IMG/VR virus record: IMGVR_UViG_3300037418_003103
Reading direction: 5' to 3' (one strand)
Length of the DNA stretch: 64,000 bases
From: a virus
Lineage: Duplodnaviria > Heunggongvirae > Uroviricota > Caudoviricetes
Below the pieces are notes generated by a model that ran no database searches, was not told the origin of the DNA, and saw only the letters and a list, made by a program, of their open reading frames with translations. The position numbers and the translations under genes are program-made. The first letter of the stretch is position 1. The number at the start of each line of letters is the position of its first letter. Of this stretch, positions 4,793 through 52,340 are shown in pieces.

Positions 4793-4838
4793 TGCAAATT
4801 TAAGACTAATAATTGAAAGGGAAAAATTATTTTCATTG
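4793..4838 (-). promoter_or_regulatory. degenerate promoter copy; -7 TAAATTTG lies 4 nt from ATG
   Basis: gctgcaaatttaagactaataattgaaagg. Confidence 0.4.
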
Positions 4839-8933: not shown

Positions 8934-9017
8934 TGCAAATATAGGTTTATAAATTAAATCTACCAACTTTAATTAAAAATAAATTTGGTACTTTCAATAA
9001 TTAGTCTTATATTTGCA
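8934..9017. promoter_or_regulatory. divergent promoter pair (strand-switch point)
   Basis: minus-type motif 8934-8975 and its reverse complement aaatttggtactttcaataattagtcttatatttgca 8981-9017 on the plus strand. Confidence 0.55.
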
Positions 9018-9032
9018 TTAAATTAATCAGGC

Positions 9033-9155
9033 ATGATAATCGATAGAAAGATAATGATACATCAATCCCACGAATATTCACATAGTGTAAAAATAATTTG
9101 TCAGAATAAAAAAATAGTCTTATATTTGCATATCGAAAATAACAACTCAATATAA
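9033..9155 (+). CDS. possible small ORF (40 aa)
   Basis: ATG 16 nt after plus promoter; contains the second plus promoter copy (9105-9135) within its 3' end. Confidence 0.2.
   Translation: MIIDRKIMIHQSHEYSHSVKIICQNKKIVLYLHIENNNSI
9105..9135 (+). promoter_or_regulatory. plus-strand promoter copy
   Basis: aatagtcttatatttgcatatcg with TTTG upstream. Confidence 0.45.
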
Positions 9156-9156
9156 A

Positions 9157-9450
9157 TTGGTATCATCAGAATTTTTTAGTAGTTTTGCATCAGATAAAAA
9201 CCATATCTTAAAAATGACCAACTACCAATGCACCAGTCTGGAGGCTAAGGAAAATAATATTGATCTGGAGCTTGAAGCCAAAGGCGCTGGAAACTGGGAG
9301 GCATTCAGAAGTTCACTGGGTCTTAGTAGCAAAGAGACTGAAATCCTACAACTCTGGATACATAAGAAAAACCTTGAATTTTATCATATGGGAATCAATA
9401 ACTTCAGAAATAGGGTAAGAGAGCTTCTCTTGTCGCCTGACGTTCAGTAG
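9157..9450 (+). CDS. hypothetical protein
   Basis: plus-strand ORF; the ORF-track start at 9157 is TTG; first ATG in frame near 9214 (MTNYQC...). Confidence 0.45.
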   Translation: MVSSEFFSSFASDKNHILKMTNYQCTSLEAKENNIDLELEAKGAGNWEAFRSSLGLSSKETEILQLWIHKKNLEFYHMGINNFRNRVRELLLSPDVQ

Positions 9451-9454
9451 GTGT

Positions 9455-9474
9455 CACAAATGTGTACATTTTAG
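9455..9474. promoter_or_regulatory. palindromic motif CACAAATGTGTACATTTTAG (copy 1)
   Basis: AAATGT/ACATTT inverted repeat immediately after the stop of ORF 9157-9450; identical copy at 9823-9842. Confidence 0.3.
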
Positions 9475-9496
9475 AGATTAAATAAACCCATGTTTT

Positions 9497-9685
9497 ATGA
9501 TTAACATAGCAGCTGTCATCATCGTATTTTTTATCTTTGGTGCCATTGACTTTATACTTAATTTAAACAATGCGAACCCAGAGGATGAACTGCAATTGGT
9601 AGAGCATTTTTTAAAGCTGACATTTTGGTGCCTAGTAGCTATTTTAATACTCTTTATAGCGAGCCACGGAGTCTTAACACCTTAA
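9497..9685 (+). CDS. small two-TM membrane protein
   Basis: 62-aa hydrophobic ORF on the plus strand. Confidence 0.4.
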   Translation: MINIAAVIIVFFIFGAIDFILNLNNANPEDELQLVEHFLKLTFWCLVAILILFIASHGVLTP

Positions 9686-9842: not shown

Positions 9843-10303
9843 GGTCTATTTTTCCTTAGTTTATCGTAGAGGGTAATACTGAGTGTAAGGAGTACAACAA
9901 TAGCGAAGACGCATCCTGCAGCTGTTCCCAGGTCTACCTGGCCAATTTCAATTAGATTCATAAGAATTGTATTTATTTTGCAAAGATATTAATTATTTTA
10001 TAATCAACCAAATATTATACAAACTTTCTTTTATGATTATATGTCTTCTTTACATAGGATGTTGTATTCATAGAGTTATGGTTGATAATCCTGTCTTCTA
10101 GTATACCCTTGGCTGGATTCTTCTTTATGATCTGAACAGCCTTCTTCTTGCTGGTAAAGTTCTTATACATGAGCAATTTTTAATAAACATACTCAAATAT
10201 TTACAAAGAAACAACTTATGGCTGGAAATGAAAATATTATACTTGGCCAAAAGTAGGTAAAAATATGAGTTATGGCCCTGAATAAAAAAGAAGCGGGCTG
10301 TAT

Positions 10304-10366
10304 TACTTCTTTTTGCCTGTAGGAAATTTAAACTAAGAAATTAGTTTAAGGTTGATATTCAGTGAC
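10304..10366 (-). repeat. 62-bp repeat R1 with 9-bp hairpin TTAAACTAA/TTAGTTTAA and TTGATAnTCA
   Basis: tacttctttttgcctgtaggaaatttaaactaagaaattagtttaaggttgatattca. Confidence 0.6.
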
Positions 10367-10376
10367 TTATGACTTG

Positions 10377-10604
10377 CTACCATTCAATCAAGTATTCCAT
10401 ATACTCATAAGCAAAACTAACGTCAAAACCATCTTTGATCAGCATATCCTTTACCTCAGGAGTTATATGAGTTAATCTTAAGTTGAACCTACCAATCTTG
10501 GCATATTCACGTATCTTATTAGCAACGTCTAGGTACTCGGCATTGATTACCTTAGGACGGCTCTCCTTGGTAAGCTTATGTATTTCTTCTTTACTTATTC
10601 TCAT
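10377..10604 (-). CDS. hypothetical protein
   Basis: 75-aa ORF; ATG 4 nt downstream of repeat R2. Confidence 0.5.
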   Translation of the reverse strand: MRISKEEIHKLTKESRPKVINAEYLDVANKIREYAKIGRFNLRLTHITPEVKDMLIKDGFDVSFAYEYMEYLIEW

Positions 10605-10607
10605 AAT

Positions 10608-10668
10608 TACTTCTTTTTGCCCGTAGGAAATTTAAACTAATAAATTAGTTTAACATTGATAATCAAGG
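10608..10668 (-). repeat. 62-bp repeat R2
   Basis: ttctttttgcccgtaggaaatttaaactaataaattagtttaacattgataatcaa. Confidence 0.6.
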
Positions 10669-10670
10669 TG

Positions 10671-10868
10671 TTATTCATTTGTTGATGGAGCTGCATCTGC
10701 ATCAGTATAAGTAAGAGGTACAAATATTCCTCTTTCATTACTAGGATAGGAATAGTAGATCCATCCACCTGGTACCCGAAGGATATTTACATCTATACTT
10801 GATAAAAGGCCTGTACTAACACTTAACCTGGTTGTTTCATGCAGCTTTAGTTCGTATATATTTTTCAT
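10671..10868 (-). CDS. hypothetical protein
   Basis: 65-aa ORF; repeat R3 45 nt upstream. Confidence 0.45.
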   Translation of the reverse strand: MKNIYELKLHETTRLSVSTGLLSSIDVNILRVPGGWIYYSYPSNERGIFVPLTYTDADAAPSTNE

Positions 10869-10916
10869 AGGATAAACCTACTACTAATTTTTCAATGATA
10901 CAACTTCTCATCAGAA

Positions 10917-10977
10917 TACTTCTTTTTGCCTGTAGGAAATTTAAACTAAGTTTTTAGTTTAGCATTGATAATCAATT
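10917..10977 (-). repeat. 62-bp repeat R3
   Basis: cttctttttgcctgtaggaaatttaaactaagtttttagtttagcattgataatcaa. Confidence 0.6.
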
Positions 10978-10984
10978 ACTTATA

Positions 10985-11022
10985 AAAAAGACATGCTTAC
11001 CCTCTGCCAACTGAGCTACACA
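10985..11022 (-). pseudogene. tRNA 5'-half fragment (acceptor + D-arm only)
   Basis: the reverse complement reads GGATGTG-TA-GCTCAGTTGGCAGAGG; no matching T-arm or acceptor 3' strand within 150 nt. Confidence 0.35.
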
Positions 11023-11261
11023 TCCGATTAAAAGAACTAAAAATTAAACCTGTCACTTACCATCGTGAATAATTACCAATTCCCTTCACTCGATTATTAG
11101 TCGAACTACTAAGTTTGCACCTCTGGGTTCTTAATTATTATCTCTACATCAAACAACGCTATTGGTAATAGCTGTAAACCTTAACCTCCTTAGTATTTCT
11201 ACCTCGATTATGATTAATTTATTACTGTTTGACCTCAAGCAGGTTTAAAAGAACTAAATTT

Positions 11262-11300
11262 TGTATGCAGTGAAGGAGTTGAACCTCCTGGCCTTTTTGA
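11262..11300 (-). other. tRNA-like T-arm/acceptor fragment
   Basis: the reverse complement reads GGAGG-TTCAACT-CCTTC-ACTGCA; no convincing 5' half found. Confidence 0.25.
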
Positions 11301-11552
11301 TTGGAGAGTGAGGGGGTTAACCTTACTCACTTTACTAATACAATCAAATACTGCGCAGTATTTGATGCTTAAAAACCAATCAAAGTGTACTTCCCTTGTC
11401 ATTTTTACCTGTTCCGTCAAACAGAATGACTTATACTATACTGCACATCTAACTATTAGGCCACAAATATACTACTAATATTTTAAAAAACCAAAACAAT
11501 TCTAAATAACACAATTTCTGCATGCTAACACTCCCTGTGTTATTGAGCAAAA

Positions 11553-11664
11553 AATAAGACTATTTTTCAAAAAATAGTCTTAAAAATGTAAAAAAGCACC
11601 AAATATTATTTAGTCTTATTTTTGAGAGGGGTGTAAAATTAGTCTTAAATTTACAAAAAATTTG
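11553..11664. promoter_or_regulatory. cluster of four TAAGACTA/TAGTCTTA promoter-core motifs in an ORF-free region
   Basis: aataagactatttttcaaaaaatagtcttaaaaatg (palindromic pair), tagtcttatttttg, tagtcttaaattta; no ORF over 60 aa on either strand across 11460-12000. Confidence 0.4.
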
Positions 11665-12003
11665 ACTGAAGCATAATATTCACTTGCATAAATGGCTGTT
11701 TTTACATGTATTCAATTTTCATATCTAGCAGCATTAAACATTTTTTTACATGCCTCCAGTAAGCTAAATCCTGATGTAAAGAGACTTCTTATTACTCATT
11801 CCCAACACAAATTCCTACTTCTTCCCACTTTCCGTACCTCTCTACCACCTCTTTTTCTCTGCTCCTGATACTTCTAGCTCATTTTCCTCTAAGTACCTCT
11901 AGAAAGTCCATACGTGCTAATACAGGGTACAAAAGGTACACTTGCTTAATACCTGCCAGTCTGAGCAAGCTGTCCGTAATGGGGCTTAAAATGCGAAATA
12001 AGA

Positions 12004-12273
12004 CTACTCTCCTGATCTCTTACTCCCTCTCTTCTTCCTGGCCAGTCCCCTCTTTATTCTCCTGCTCCGCTCCTCCCGTATTGCCCCCATTGCCATCTCC
12101 GTCGGCCTAGCAAGGCCCAGCATAAGTTCATCTAGAGGCAGGCCCTCTCTTCTTGCATGTAGGTAGAGGAATATCCCCACCTTCCCCAGAGCCTCTCTAC
12201 CATCAAACTCCAGTAATTCCCTAAGTCCCTGATATAACTTCTCTTGTTCTTTATTTAATCCCTTGTTCTTCAT
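12004..12273 (-). CDS. hypothetical protein, basic C-terminus (GC-rich island)
   Basis: 89-aa ORF; local GC about 48% against about 33% for the window. Confidence 0.5.
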   Translation of the reverse strand: MKNKGLNKEQEKLYQGLRELLEFDGREALGKVGIFLYLHARREGLPLDELMLGLARPTEMAMGAIREERSRRIKRGLARKKRGSKRSGE

Positions 12274-12328
12274 ATGATTATTTTAATCCTCTTCTGCTTC
12301 TTTTTGATTGATGTGGTTCGGGATGTGA

Positions 12329-12724
12329 CTAGGGCCTGTATCCCCCTGCAAGTATCAAACCTCTTATCTTCTCCACTTCCATCTCTCCACGCTCGCTCAG
12401 ACCCTCATTATTCCAATTCGTATCAGTATCATGAAGAGCCTGAACTCCACTCAGAAACTGCCTGCCCAGATCCTTCAGGCCATCTGGCAAGAGTTCAAAG
12501 GCCTCCGCAGCTGATATGCCAACGCTAAAGTCAGGATACATCTTATCCAGCTTCCTCTGTAACTCAGGACTCAGGTGCCTGCCAATGGCACAACCTGGTG
12601 TCCTCTCGCTGCTGGGAGCATACATGCAACCAATCCTGGGTGAATAAGATCTGTTTCCCAGATTATAAAAACTGGCCGTGTCCTCCAGGAACGCCAGTTG
12701 CTTCTCTTGTCTAGTCATTTTCAT
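12329..12724 (-). CDS. hypothetical protein (GC-rich island)
   Basis: 131-aa ORF. Confidence 0.5.
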   Translation of the reverse strand: MKMTRQEKQLAFLEDTASFYNLGNRSYSPRIGCMYAPSSERTPGCAIGRHLSPELQRKLDKMYPDFSVGISAAEAFELLPDGLKDLGRQFLSGVQALHDTDTNWNNEGLSERGEMEVEKIRGLILAGGYRP

Positions 12725-12729
12725 GCTCT

Positions 12730-12942
12730 TTAATTTAATGCCCGCTTTATAATGTAACCCAGCAAATTCTCTGGCTTCTTGAACTCAATCCAATAACCCT
12801 CAGAATAGGGGTGCGAACTCATTACCAGATAAATTTCCTCATGCAACCCCTTCAATTCATCATACTTCTCGCTTGCCTTCTTATAAGCAAGCTCTCCGTC
12901 TTTGCTCCAGATTCCCACTGGAAAGTATATTGACTCTGTCAT
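12730..12942 (-). CDS. hypothetical protein (GC-rich island)
   Basis: 70-aa ORF. Confidence 0.45.
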   Translation of the reverse strand: MTESIYFPVGIWSKDGELAYKKASEKYDELKGLHEEIYLVMSSHPYSEGYWIEFKKPENLLGYIIKRALN

Positions 12943-12944
12943 AA

Positions 12945-13292
12945 TTATTTGAATCTATATCCCTTTAATAAATTACCTCTGCTCTTTAATAACTCACCCG
13001 CTAATTCTGAGTCTCTCTTAAGATAAGAGACTTCATAAGGACAAATCCTGTCGGTCAGCGGTGACATCCCAGTACCAATTACCCATTGATACAGAAGCCC
13101 CTCCTTACAGAGCTGGGTGAGAACTCTTCTTACACTAGGGCAAGTCCTATAAAAGGCCTGGCCATCTTGAACTGGATACTCCAAGGCCTCCGCAACCTCC
13201 ACGGCAGTATACTTACCCTCATGCCTCTCAAAGAAGGCAATTACCTCTTTCTTAAGTTCTCTTCGCTTGCTTGATTCTTTCTCGCTTGGCAT
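12945..13292 (-). CDS. putative winged-helix DNA-binding protein (GC-rich island)
   Basis: 115-aa ORF; YTAVEVAEAL...VRRVLTQLCKEGLL resembles a wHTH recognition helix and wing. Confidence 0.4.
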   Translation of the reverse strand: MPSEKESSKRRELKKEVIAFFERHEGKYTAVEVAEALEYPVQDGQAFYRTCPSVRRVLTQLCKEGLLYQWVIGTGMSPLTDRICPYEVSYLKRDSELAGELLKSRGNLLKGYRFK

Positions 13293-13299
13293 AAACTGA

Positions 13300-13746
13300 T
13301 TACTTAACCCCTGGTTTAATATTGGTGGAGTGCTTCACACGCTCATCATCCACATAAAAAAGTTCAACTCCCTGAAATATAAGATACATCCAGTCATACG
13401 TCTCCACACCCTCATAAAATTCATCACTGAACTCATCCCTATTTGTTTTTTTATCGGGGCCAAACATAAGTCTCTCCAGGAATTTAAACTCTTCCAGTGT
13501 TATCTGTTTATCTTTAAAGCAACCCATCAGGTGCTCCCAATCTAGCATAACAGCCCACTTGCCAGGGCAAGGCTTTAACTTATTCAACAGTCTACAGTAC
13601 TTCTCTGTATGAGGATTATCGATAGACACCCTTACGCTCCTGGACGTATATCCATCAGCATCCCCTATCATGTAGTGGTAGGTAAGGAGATAGTAGGGGT
13701 TTATTCTCTTTTTATTTACTACCTTCTTATTTCGTATTCGTATCAT
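13300..13746 (-). CDS. hypothetical protein
   Basis: 148-aa ORF. Confidence 0.5.
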   Translation of the reverse strand: MIRIRNKKVVNKKRINPYYLLTYHYMIGDADGYTSRSVRVSIDNPHTEKYCRLLNKLKPCPGKWAVMLDWEHLMGCFKDKQITLEEFKFLERLMFGPDKKTNRDEFSDEFYEGVETYDWMYLIFQGVELFYVDDERVKHSTNIKPGVK

Positions 13747-13767
13747 TGATCCTTTTTTACTCGTAAT

Positions 13768-14130
13768 TTATGCTTCAAGAGGAATTCTAAAAACTTCATA
13801 AGGATATTCCCTATCTAAAATAGACGCCCTCTCGTTCTTCGTATATGAAAATCCAATACTAAGGTTTCCTCCTACAAGTGGAAAGCAATCATCAATGAAA
13901 ATGTATCTGAATGGAATACAAGCGGCTCTTTCACCCAATCCAATTCTTAGAGTCGTCTCGTTCTTAAACCAAATACACCTGTAGGTAATATCATAAACCT
14001 TAAACTCTATTACCCTTGAAAACCCATAATCCTCTGCACCAGTGTACTTCGGATTCACACCAGCCTTGGTAAGAAAGTCAAAAAGTTCTTCTAATCCCAC
14101 CGCCTGAAAGTTTTTACTGGATGTGTTCAT
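13768..14130 (-). CDS. hypothetical protein
   Basis: 120-aa ORF. Confidence 0.5.
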   Translation of the reverse strand: MNTSSKNFQAVGLEELFDFLTKAGVNPKYTGAEDYGFSRVIEFKVYDITYRCIWFKNETTLRIGLGERAACIPFRYIFIDDCFPLVGGNLSIGFSYTKNERASILDREYPYEVFRIPLEA

Positions 14131-51988: not shown

Positions 51989-52110
51989 TGGGGAAGGGTG
52001 GAATCGAACCACCGACGCGGCCATTAAAAGTGGAGTAAGTTAAAATATGTTATCACAGAGATAAAATCATCTCAACTAATTACCTGCTCTACCAACTGAG
52101 CTACTTCCCC
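51989..52110 (-). tRNA. tRNA-Lys(TTT) interrupted by a 49-nt insertion (52034-52082) in the 5' strand of the anticodon stem
   Basis: acceptor GGGGAAG/CTTCCCC, D-arm GCTC-AGTTGGTA-GAGC, T-arm GGTGG-TTCGATT-CCACC; removing the insert gives a canonical 73-nt tRNA with anticodon stem GGCCA/TGGCC and loop CTTTTAA. Confidence 0.65.
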
Positions 52111-52134
52111 GAAAAAAAAAAGCTATATAATCAA

Positions 52135-52183
52135 ATGAAGTGTGTTTTTTATCAATTAAAGTAACTTCATTTATGTTACAGCT
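52135..52183. repeat. hairpin element copy 1 (ATGAAGT...ACTTCAT, conserved loop TTTTTATCAATTAAAGT)
   Basis: 7-bp stem; paralogue at 52286-52340 has compensatory stem changes. Confidence 0.45.
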
Positions 52184-52285
52184 TAAAGAACTAAAACATT
52201 AATAATCTGCTGGAGTATGTTTTCAAATAAAGGTTGTAGTAACTCCAACAATGTTCAATGTTTATTATATTAAAAGTGATAATCA

Positions 52286-52340
52286 GACGAAGTGGTTGTT
52301 TTTATCAATTAAAGTTTAGTAACTTCGTCTATGTTCACTC
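52286..52340. repeat. hairpin element copy 2 (GACGAAGT...ACTTCGTC)
   Basis: 8-bp stem; same conserved loop core. Confidence 0.45.

Follow-up and report, generated by a model that had tools for sequence, protein, structure and literature searches.

A three-copy hairpin repeat among small genes of a very large uncultured phage, tentatively read as a portable intercistronic linker

REP-type hairpins and intercistronic stem-loops stabilize those parts of a polycistronic mRNA that lie upstream or downstream of them, while an intrinsic (Rho-independent) terminator consists of a G+C-rich stem that is followed by a run of U residues. The attC site of integrons is a palindrome that is imperfect, carries extrahelical bases and contains R''/L'' and L'/R' cores (GTTRRRY); an integron integrase is found nearby. 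T4-type phages possess promoter-early stem-loop (PeSL) regulatory cassettes (Arbiol et al. 2010, PMC2839356; Comeau et al. 2014, PMC4122927). Such a cassette includes an early promoter of host-type consensus and a stem-loop with terminator or attenuator activity; its numerous copies flank ORFans in plastic genome regions, and junctions of mini-circles or of indels between close relatives fall inside it. The promoters of Bacteroidota contain a -7 box of the form TAnnTTTG, in which the G at position -5 is nearly invariant (PMC6847099), and a -33 TTTG some 20 nt farther upstream. Translation initiation in this group proceeds without a Shine-Dalgarno sequence and is favored by an unpaired, A-rich leader with A residues at positions -3, -12 and -13 (PMC6847099).

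The locus considered here lies in a 64,000-nucleotide stretch of DNA (the window) from a virus of the Caudoviricetes (IMG/VR record IMGVR_UViG_3300037418_003103), and the genes present at it are encoded on the minus strand. A unit of 69 nt occurs there in three direct copies, all read on the minus strand: copy C (10915..10983), which is the first in the direction of transcription, copy B (10606..10674), and the terminal copy A (10302..10370). The initial annotation had described three repeats of 62 bp that are spaced about 305 bp apart and all possess a 9-bp stem; number and distance stand (the spacings are 304 and 309 nt), but the unit is longer than proposed, and the stem of copy C comprises only 8 bp. 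The copies have sharp edges and exhibit pairwise identities of 87%, 85.5% and 84%. In gene orientation, the element is composed of the stop sequence ATAA, the palindrome TTGATTATCAA, the hairpin TTAAACTAA-N4-TTAGTTTAA, the segment ATTTCCTACRGGCAAAAAGAAGTAAT, and an ATG. Copy B is positioned between two small genes, ORF65 and ORF75; its bases 1-4 (ATAA) include the stop codon of ORF65, and only 1 nt lies between its end and the ATG of ORF75. Copy C directly follows a truncated tRNA, an adjacency already noticed in the initial annotation, and its end is separated by 46 nt from the ATG of ORF65. Copy A begins 7 nt past the stop codon of ORF75, has no ORF directly behind it, and leads into a non-coding stretch of about 125 nt that includes a second hairpin. 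The notion that a small gene follows each copy is thus correct for copies B and C, but not for copy A, which runs into a terminator-like hairpin.

The three-copy repeat is real but local. Its 31-nt and 23-nt cores match the three repeat sites only, with no match expected by chance. A covariance model run on the 64-kb window with its filters off detects only the three copies, each of which scores about 100 bits (copy C, 99.3 bits; copy B, 101.2 bits; copy A, 100.9 bits); the next unrelated match scores 15.6 bits, and in between are found only plus-strand readings of the palindromic hairpins of the copies themselves. Inclusion of a further 6.4 kb beyond the window yielded no additional copy among the more than 100 genes of the scanned sequence, which amounts to about 70 kb of the 345-kb genome. 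The arrangement of the repeats is 100% identical in two independent JGI assemblies, and in Logan contigs the assembly stops within copies C and A, as is expected of a true repeat. Five assemblies of this phage are all 100% identical, and no insertion or deletion bounded by the element was seen among them; exact-protein look-ups for phage relatives returned 100% identical assemblies only, and no relatives of a neighboring DUF932 protein were present in IMG/VR. The initial annotation had named a lack of conservation elsewhere among the signs that would speak against its proposal, and none of the public collections searched yielded a copy. Searches of the INPHARED phages in near and distant modes gave no match, three search patterns in IMG/VR gave either nothing or one chance match in an unrelated high-GC phage, all seven matches in JGI metagenome contigs lie within unrelated coding sequence, and the GTDB genomes contain a single chance match in a cyanobacterium. 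The covariance model found no copy on six phage contigs that carry homologues of ORF65, and Rfam holds no match to the element at the gathering score and chance-level matches only at E values up to 10.

The hairpin of copy B (10632..10653, minus strand) has the sequence TTAAACTAA-TTTA-TTAGTTTAA and that of copy A (10328..10349, minus strand) the sequence TTAAACTAA-TTTC-TTAGTTTAA, each with 9 bp and a 4-nt loop, while the hairpin of copy C (10941..10962, minus strand; CTAAACTAA-AAAC-TTAGTTTAA) retains 8 intact pairs and has a broken outer pair. A loop of five nucleotides had been proposed originally; a search with N5 fails. RNA structure prediction, recommended in the initial annotation as a check, does recover the hairpin in all three copies with a core-pair probability of 0.9-1.0 in 222-nt contexts (inner-pair probabilities of 0.8-0.98 in copy B). 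The stem is AU-rich, with one G-C pair in nine and a predicted energy of about -5 kcal/mol; the folds of the whole element are no better than those of shuffled sequence (z about 0), and no covariation is seen in stems that never vary. The differences among the copies are concentrated in the hairpin loop, in which 4 of 4 sites are variable versus 1 of 18 in the stem (Fisher p = 0.0007), and in the 5' part of the element, whose 21 nt contain eight variable positions versus two in the 3' 26 nt (p = 0.03), both values being derived from just three copies of shared ancestry. The change from TTT to AAA in the loop of copy C may be a single event.

These data bear on the idea that the copies are neutral leftovers of a recent local duplication or recombination, with the 69 bp corresponding to the ancestral intergenic region of an ORF75-like gene. 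The presence of only three clustered copies, unconserved in all collections searched, would agree with such an origin, and so would folds of no unusual stability that show no covariation. However, the substitutions are unevenly distributed between loop and stems and between the 5' and 3' parts, and the linkers are 84-87% identical while the segments flanked by them have retained no residual similarity, a combination that points either to constraint or to repeated conversion. We therefore regard neutrality as a rather unlikely explanation. A tandem duplication of a 305-bp unit was rejected, since the similarity among the inter-repeat segments and among the flanks does not exceed that of shuffled sequences and the two encoded proteins are unrelated.

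The palindrome TTGATTATCAA, which lies next to the hairpin, is found at 10656..10666 in copy B and at 10965-10975 in copy C, and it has the degenerate form CTGAATATCAA in copy A (10352-10362). One may envision that a dimeric phage or host regulator binds this dyad together with the perfect 22-bp dyad of the hairpin (two 9-bp half-sites with a 4-bp spacer) as a DNA operator and thereby controls the small genes. The invariant half-sites and the fully variable central spacer have the look of a dimer site, and two dyads are located side by side; yet no DNA-binding protein was found nearby (ORF75 has no fold match and its neighbors lack Pfam matches), the sites overlap no promoter, and copy A holds only a degenerate form of the second dyad. 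This makes an operator function improbable in our view. The palindrome TTGATAATCAA had also been thought to recur in hairpin loops at 52.1-52.3 kb, but no match with one mismatch or fewer is present there, and only the 8-mer ATTGATAA is common to the two regions.

Downstream of the hairpin, an A-rich leader, GGCAAAAAGAAGTAATT (10605..10621, minus strand), adjoins the ATG of ORF75, and equivalent A-rich tracts, GGCAAAAAGAAG, are present in copy A (10306-10317) and copy C (10919-10930). Only in copy B is the leader in use as a gene start. It contains A residues at positions -3, -12 and -13 relative to the ATG and is predicted to be mostly unpaired; the paired probability of the ORF75 start region (0.36) is in the lowest quartile of 138 ORFs. 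The second hairpin of copy A (10285..10314, minus strand; z = -3.2 in a 121-nt context, with equal folding in 2 of 200 shuffles) forms between the purine tract AAAAAGAAGU and its inverted counterpart GCUUCUUUUU, located 10 nt downstream. Judged from this predicted fold, the second hairpin is probably a terminator-like end of the unit.

A related proposal would view every copy as an intrinsic terminator or attenuator placed behind each unit, namely the tRNA fragment, ORF65 and ORF75. At its 5' edge, the element invariably begins within 0-7 nt of where the preceding unit stops, whereas the next start is found at varying distances of 1, 46 and about 125 nt; AUUU follows the hairpin, and copy A possesses the second, A-tract/U-tract hairpin. 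What speaks against termination is the stem itself, with its single G-C pair and its energy of only about -5 kcal/mol, and the sequence AUUUCC behind it, which provides just three U residues; a scan with the terminator consensus did not detect the element. Furthermore, a full stop after copy C or copy B would strand ORF65 or ORF75 without a recognizable promoter, and we hence deem a general terminator function very unlikely.

ORF75 (10377..10604, minus strand) starts with the ATG directly after copy B and encodes an ORFan protein of 75 amino acids for which no credible homologue was found. Matches obtained with HMMER were rejected as an artefact in which weak matches are summed over a perfectly repetitive protein. 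The AlphaFold model of ORF75 is helical and of low confidence (pLDDT 62), Foldseek returned nothing for it at E below 1, and searches of PHROGs, PADLOC and Pfam with the protein gave nothing. ORF65 (10671..10868, minus strand; 65 amino acids) falls into a small family of phage proteins that share the motif RVPGGWIY, and its homologues on six other phage contigs all lack the element. The ORF75 and ORF65 proteins show no similarity to each other, and the neighboring ORFs have no Pfam matches above threshold. A reading frame of 24 codons (10837..10911, minus strand) opens with ATGAGAA 3 nt past copy C and overlaps the start of ORF65 out of frame. The same ATGAGAA is found at the start of ORF75, a likeness that is not significant as a local alignment alone; from its sequence, the frame behind copy C appears to be a vestigial start or an upstream ORF. 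ORF65 is additionally preceded by a decayed host-type promoter (10873..10904, minus strand; GTTG-N20-TAGGTTTA-TCCT-ATG), which is spaced as for a leaderless mRNA; its score of -0.5 bits in a position weight matrix (PWM) should be seen against the fact that only 30 of 63,956 positions score above zero.

The truncated tRNA (10984..11025, minus strand) comprises the 5' part of such a molecule, with the acceptor strand, the D-arm and a remnant of the anticodon arm, and it stops at the edge of copy C. Its D-loop reads TAGCTCAGTTGG, and it shares 77% identity with the 5' portion of a tRNA at 52110; neither ARAGORN nor Rfam calls a tRNA at 10984..11025. A complete tRNA that is split or interrupted by an intron across the array was rejected, as the downstream sequence contains neither a T-arm nor a matching 3' acceptor strand. 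Derivation of the copy A flank from the tRNA fragment, suggestive in a MAFFT alignment, was likewise rejected as not above chance.

The nearest upstream host-type promoter (11460..11503, minus strand; TTTG-N20-TATATTTG; 36.7 bits) is the probable start of the transcription unit that holds the repeats. A tRNA-like RNA (11446-11263) lies downstream of it, and the unit is limited by the next host-type promoter in the downstream direction (9977..10020, minus strand; 28.5 bits). About 23 such promoters of the Bacteroidota TTTG/TAnnTTTG type are present in the window in an extended 44-nt form, and from these signals we judge the host lineage of the phage to be of Bacteroidota type.

Whether the element itself is a promoter was assessed with a PWM built from 21 promoters of the same phage. 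The copies score -15 to -27 bits versus 26-54 bits for the real promoters, and the element does not fit the main promoter class of the phage, in line with the earlier remark that it departs from the early promoter spacing. The suggestion of a second (middle/late) promoter class is not supported: only three clustered copies are present in about 70 kb, copy A has no gene behind it, and the frequency of TAHHTTTC upstream of ORFs (0.27) equals that of control boxes, versus 0.54 for TAHHTTTG, so that a general TAHHTTTC class was rejected for want of enrichment. A narrower proposal is that of a weak or specialized promoter, a true PeSL analogue, in which the stem-loop would sit between a -33 and a -7 box and TAAATTTC would serve as the -7 box (copy B, 10626..10633; copy A, 10322-10329; copy C, 10935-10942; all minus strand). 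The host polymerase, or a phage-modified one, would then start transcription at the variable purine 10622, 10318 or 10931, 5 nt past the box, and ORF75 would receive an A-rich leader of 20 nt. The box fits TAnnTTTG at 7 of 8 positions, a purine occupies the predicted +1 in every copy, and the spacing to the purine and the A-rich leader would suit a Bacteroidota promoter, as would the resemblance of TTAGT-TTAAATTTCC to the TTAGTCTTAAATTTGC of such promoters. In addition, TTATTAGT-TTAAATTT agrees at 16 of 17 positions with TTATTAGTCTTAAATTT of the promoter located at 4802, within its -7 region (equalled in 1 of 1000 shuffles), and the real promoters of this phage are likewise conserved over 44-50 nt. 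The stem-loop of PeSL cassettes, too, is mostly located between two promoter boxes (PMC2839356). In contrast to genuine Bacteroidota promoters, however, all copies carry a C in place of the nearly invariant G at -5 (PMC6847099) and a 1-nt deletion, and the -33 position holds AATG or, in copy A, AACC instead of TTTG. Taken with the low scores, the unenriched box, the small number of exclusively local copies, and a copy A that drives no gene, these features lead us to consider a promoter function unlikely.

A related and still less probable possibility is that a PeSL-type cassette functions in a phage that is not T4-like: the hairpin-bearing linker of this jumbo phage would both drive its cargo through the non-canonical TAAATTTC promoter and move small genes by recombination. 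Such a promoter would be read by the host polymerase or a phage-modified one, and copy C would record an insertion into a tRNA gene.

We tentatively favor, with somewhat less than even confidence, a reading of the repeat as a portable, PeSL-like intercistronic linker that is promoter-less or at most very weak as a promoter, the latter qualification stemming from the C at the position of the nearly invariant G(-5). Each copy would represent a complete intergenic linker that joins the stop codon of a unit to the start codon of its successor. The three copies would be transcribed within one minus-strand unit that has its origin in the host-type promoter at about 11.47 kb and opens with the tRNA-like RNA. 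In the transcript, the linker is predicted to fold into a short AU hairpin, and the next 20 nt or so, GGCAAAAAGAAGUAAUU, would stay unpaired before the AUG. Since Bacteroidota lack a Shine-Dalgarno sequence and favor unpaired A-rich leaders, the linker could serve as a portable landing pad, a hairpin plus ribosome landing pad suited to a host of this type. The hairpin might shield the start site from upstream RNA, and it may guard RNA ends once the tRNA-like part has been processed off. This anatomy would also suit two roles suggested in the initial annotation, a 5'-UTR element and a site of RNA processing. Copy A would be unused as a leader, with its A-tract held in the second hairpin that probably ends the unit.

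The proposed linker would also have an evolutionary side, which the initial annotation had overlooked. The 69 bp flanking each small gene would provide a substrate for homologous recombination, and the scars at the locus suggest that recombination copied the linker and exchanged its cargo, as has been proposed for the PeSL cassettes of T4-type phages. We read the truncated tRNA, the vestigial ATGAGAA, the orphan copy A and the decayed leaderless promoter of ORF65 itself as such scars, and we also count the sharp repeat edges, the unrelated nature of the flanked genes and the ORF65 homologues without the element as evidence of recombination. The segment around the 3' arm of the hairpin may be derived from the -7 promoter box of the phage.

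If this interpretation is true, it shows how small accessory genes are packaged in a very large, uncultured phage whose host group dispenses with Shine-Dalgarno sequences: a single short module of hairpin plus A-rich leader is reused and doubles as a recombination handle. The PeSL-derived idea of linkers as vehicles for gene shuffling would then extend past the T4-like phages and into Bacteroidota-style expression. The finding concerns a single locus in a single genome, and its weight is modest. Its practical outcome is a negative one: annotation of the element as a promoter class is to be avoided, and the link to the 52-kb hairpins falls.

Among the known systems, the integron cassettes resemble the locus as arrays of small, unrelated and promoter-less ORFs with a repeated palindromic site in between. 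The alternation of ORF, hairpin repeat and ORF, the sharp edges and the truncation of a tRNA gene by one copy would be compatible with a site of a dedicated mobile system, be it attC-like, a hairpin end of the IS200/IS605 type, or a MITE. The element nevertheless has neither terminal inverted repeats nor a target-site duplication, and its stem is short and perfect, without the extrahelical bases of attC. The R/L cores are unconserved (GTTAAAC, fitting GTTRRRY, occurs in copy B only), and its copies are near-identical, whereas attC sites are conserved in structure and variable in sequence. No integrase, transposase or other recombinase was found among the neighbors scanned, and no other copy was found in any of the collections searched; we thus hold a mobile-system site to be most improbable.

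With REP-type hairpins and intercistronic stem-loops, the element shares the position of repeated hairpins between cistrons of one operon, directly after stop codons. Its hairpin is, in contrast, much weaker and AU-rich, and it is fused to a conserved leader and a start codon instead of being dispersed over the genome.

The comparison with the PeSL cassettes is the most instructive one for the proposed linker. The element differs from them by the lack of a functional-looking host promoter, by an AU-rich stem in place of the GGGG/CCCC stem of PeSL, by its three clustered copies in about 70 kb scanned versus dozens for PeSL, and by its residence in a phage of Bacteroidota type, in which an A-rich leader takes the place of the Shine-Dalgarno sequence. 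The three copies in these 70 kb flank one ORFan (ORF75) and one small conserved phage gene (ORF65). Like PeSL, the element combines a stem-loop with a translation-initiation region, it flanks small genes of the ORFan type in a region of small early genes, and its repeated copies are natural substrates for homologous recombination.

The repeat search identified three 69-nt direct repeats on the minus strand, the strand that carries nearly all genes of the window (GC content of about 33%). Copies A (10302-10370), B (10606-10674) and C (10915-10983), whose order in the direction of transcription is C, B, A, are spaced by 304 and 309 nt and share pairwise identities of 87%, 85.5% and 84%. Their 31-nt and 23-nt cores occur in the window at these three places only, with a chance expectation of none. 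A covariance model built on the three copies, and run on both strands with the filters off, recovered only copies A to C (about 100 bits each); weak plus-strand matches of 16-20 bits merely echoed the palindromic hairpins of these copies, no further match scored above 15.6 bits (E = 2), and the 6.4 kb beyond the window start gave no match. The repeat locus is 100% identical between two independent JGI assemblies, and the breaks of Logan contigs fall exactly within copies C (10921) and A (10333), as is expected of a real repeat. Given a source contig of 345,454 bp, the virus is a jumbo phage. No match to the element was found among INPHARED phages; IMG/VR returned nothing or chance matches, all seven matches in JGI metagenome contigs were chance hits within coding sequence, and the single match in GTDB genomes was also due to chance. 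The collections searched thus offered no conservation of the element, and a relative of the phage itself was not recovered. We conclude that the repeat is real and well delimited, local within the sequence scanned and, by these searches, unique to this phage.

In gene orientation, the consensus consists of ATAA, 4-5 variable nt, TTGATTATCAA, NN, TTAAACTAA-N4-TTAGTTTAA, and ATTTCCTAC-R-GGCAAAAAGAAGTAAT; copy A has a degenerate form of the first palindrome. The initial annotation had described a perfect 9-bp hairpin with a 5-nt loop in all three copies. The loop is 4 nt long, so that the copies are not recovered by an N5 pattern, and the perfect stem holds for copies A and B, the outer pair being broken in copy C. 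Of the 69 columns, 15 vary, and they are unevenly distributed: all four loop positions vary versus one of 18 in the stem (p = 0.0007), and the 5' part has 8 variable positions out of 21 whereas the 3' part has 2 out of 26 (p = 0.03). This pattern points to constraint on both hairpin and leader. The edges of the copies are sharp; neither the flanks nor the two segments between the repeats resemble each other better than shuffled sequence does.

RNA structure prediction places the hairpin in every copy; within contexts of 222 nt, its core pairs reach probabilities of 0.9-1.0. It is built from AU pairs only (about -5 kcal/mol), and 81-nt folds are no better than those of shuffles; the three copies contain no covariation in the hairpin because the stems never vary. 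It fails the intrinsic-terminator consensus, and the element matches no Rfam family. Most of the A-rich tract is predicted to stay unpaired, and the ORF75 start region has a paired probability of 0.36, in the lower quartile among 138 ORFs. The leader of ORF75 carries A at -3, -12 and -13; A at such positions has been reported as one of several positive determinants in Flavobacterium johnsoniae, whose phylum does without Shine-Dalgarno pairing (PMC6847099). A 5'-UTR role of the element is compatible with this anatomy.

Contrary to the initial proposal, the palindrome does not recur at 52 kb. In that region (52128-52337, minus strand), a host-type promoter (anchor 52366) and an odd tRNA enclose three units, each about 60-70 nt long, in which AACAT is followed by one strand of a 10-bp stem, by a loop of conserved sequence (TTACT..TTAATTGATAAAAA), by the stem partner and by GATTAT. 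The stems differ in sequence and remain complementary, with double compensatory changes in 5 of 10 pairs across just three copies; judged by this pattern, the units look like a real structured RNA family. Several tRNA genes of the phage, all on the minus strand (51989-52110, 1227-1355, 1530-1618 and 2038-2165), contain large insertions of 26-57 nt, located either in the anticodon loop or in the variable region; when introns are allowed, ARAGORN assigns the anticodon TTA to the tRNA at 52110, which would then act as a UAA suppressor.

The copies flank two unrelated minus-strand genes, ORF75 (10377-10604, 75 aa) and ORF65 (10671-10868, 65 aa). The ORF65 stop codon lies at the start of copy B, which ends 1 nt ahead of the ORF75 ATG, and copy C is located 46 nt upstream of the ORF65 ATG. 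The sequence ATGAGAA, found 3 nt past the end of copy C, opens a 24-codon frame overlapping the start of ORF65; the identical seven bases open ORF75 after copy B. No ORF follows copy A, and the claim that every copy precedes a gene is therefore wrong. Instead, the purine tract of copy A (AAAAAGAAGU) is predicted to form a second hairpin with its own inverted copy (GCUUCUUUUU), which lies 10 nt downstream (fold z = -3.2 in a 121-nt context).

ORF75 is an ORFan without a homologue among 5.8 billion clustered proteins; its few HMMER matches among 1.84 billion representatives were rejected as artefacts of a perfectly repetitive protein, and its low-confidence structure model found no fold match. 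ORF65 belongs to a small, unannotated phage protein family (motif YELKLHE...RVPGGWIY...FVP) with members in six diverse IMG/VR contigs (40-50% identity, GC contents from 32% to 44%), none of which carries flanking repeats or the element.

The third copy does abut a tRNA fragment, as initially noted: a truncated 5' part (11025-10984, minus strand), called by neither ARAGORN nor Rfam, ends where copy C begins. A split tRNA gene was considered and rejected; neither a matching T-arm nor a 3' acceptor strand is present downstream, and the gene is therefore broken. The interval from the nearest upstream host-type promoter (anchor 11471) to copy C is entirely non-coding; it includes a tRNA-like gene of low score that carries an insertion of 111 nt (11263-11446, minus strand) and is found only at low threshold, and about 200 nt of unassigned sequence. 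Within 11028-11258 (minus strand), the 14-mer TTTAGTTCTTTTAA occurs twice, just past the tRNA-like gene and just ahead of the truncated tRNA, bracketing about 200 non-coding nt without an Rfam match. At 11550-11660, promoter-like TAGTCTTAnnTTTG motifs in both orientations surround an inverted repeat of 18 nt (AAAAATAGTCTTATTTTT), so that divergent promoters may lie here, ahead of the tRNA-like RNA unit; the plus-strand sites precede only a doubtful 58-aa ORF. The segment at 12000-14000 (GC 0.43 versus about 0.33 elsewhere) contains small ORFs, one of which (12945-13292) may encode a winged-helix protein (weak HTH_IclR match, E = 0.04); the segment may have been recently acquired.

The phage possesses a strongly conserved promoter family, AAATAAATTTGG-N-TTTCAA-N-ATTAGTCTTATATTTGCA, with at least 21 copies on the minus and two on the plus strand of the window (about 23 sites), which is of the Bacteroidota -33 TTTG / -7 TAnnTTTG type (PMC6847099). 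Conservation extends over 44-50 nt, far past the two boxes (AAATAAATTTGGTAnTTTCAAnnATTAGTCTTATATTTGCA; e.g., 3953, 7616, 8599 and 17776 on the minus strand, 9008 and 9121 on the plus strand), and such long promoters could themselves serve as recombination linkers. For several of these promoters (4802, 5331, 8943), an ATG follows at 4 nt, a distance that would give leaderless mRNAs. In a small opposite-strand island (8976-9685, plus strand) of an otherwise all-minus region, the strong promoters 9008 and 9121 would drive two ORFs of 97 and 62 aa; one of them stands back-to-back with the minus-strand promoter 8943.

A second promoter class, proposed in the initial annotation, is unsupported in the window. 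A promoter matrix derived from 21 promoters of the phage scored copies A to C at -15 to -27 bits, versus 26-54 bits for true sites; TAHHTTTC is found upstream of ORFs at 0.27, the same as control boxes, versus 0.54 for TAHHTTTG; the G at -5 is nearly invariant in Bacteroidota promoters (PMC6847099), which counts against a promoter role of the element, as does the fact that copy A drives nothing. It is conceivable that the element acts as a weak local promoter: it contains TAAATTTC, a 7/8 match to the -7 box, and TTATTAGT-TTAAATTT agrees with the promoter at 4802 in 16 of 17 positions with one gap, a likeness equalled by 1 of 1000 shuffles, with 12 comparisons made. The matrix scores, the G(-5) preference and the gene-less copy A speak against this possibility. 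Directly upstream of ORF65 lies a decayed host-type promoter copy with leaderless spacing; its score of -0.5 bits may be set beside the mere 30 of 63,956 positions that exceed 0. The next host-type promoter downstream of the repeats is at 9988.

The element is an entire intergenic linker, running from stop codon to start codon, and its three copies surround two small genes that are unrelated to each other. We infer its functions throughout; the most economical would be an intercistronic RNA module, in which a local hairpin is followed by an unpaired, A-rich ribosome landing pad. Four features may be read as scars: the truncation of the tRNA gene where it meets copy C, the vestigial start that follows this copy, the now decayed promoter with which one cargo gene would have arrived, and the terminal copy A, part of which apparently became one side of a terminator-like hairpin.

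Among described systems, the closest is the promoter-early stem-loop (PeSL) cassette of T4-type phages, in which stop codon, promoter, stem-loop, ribosome-binding site and start codon follow each other; PeSLs flank ORFans and mediate gene shuffling via homologous recombination (PMC2839356). The element shares this layout, and a similar role in recombination is likely. Unlike PeSLs, it does not score as a promoter and is not dispersed within the roughly 70 kb covered, and we therefore class it as a promoter-less or promoter-decayed variant rather than as a member of the PeSL group.
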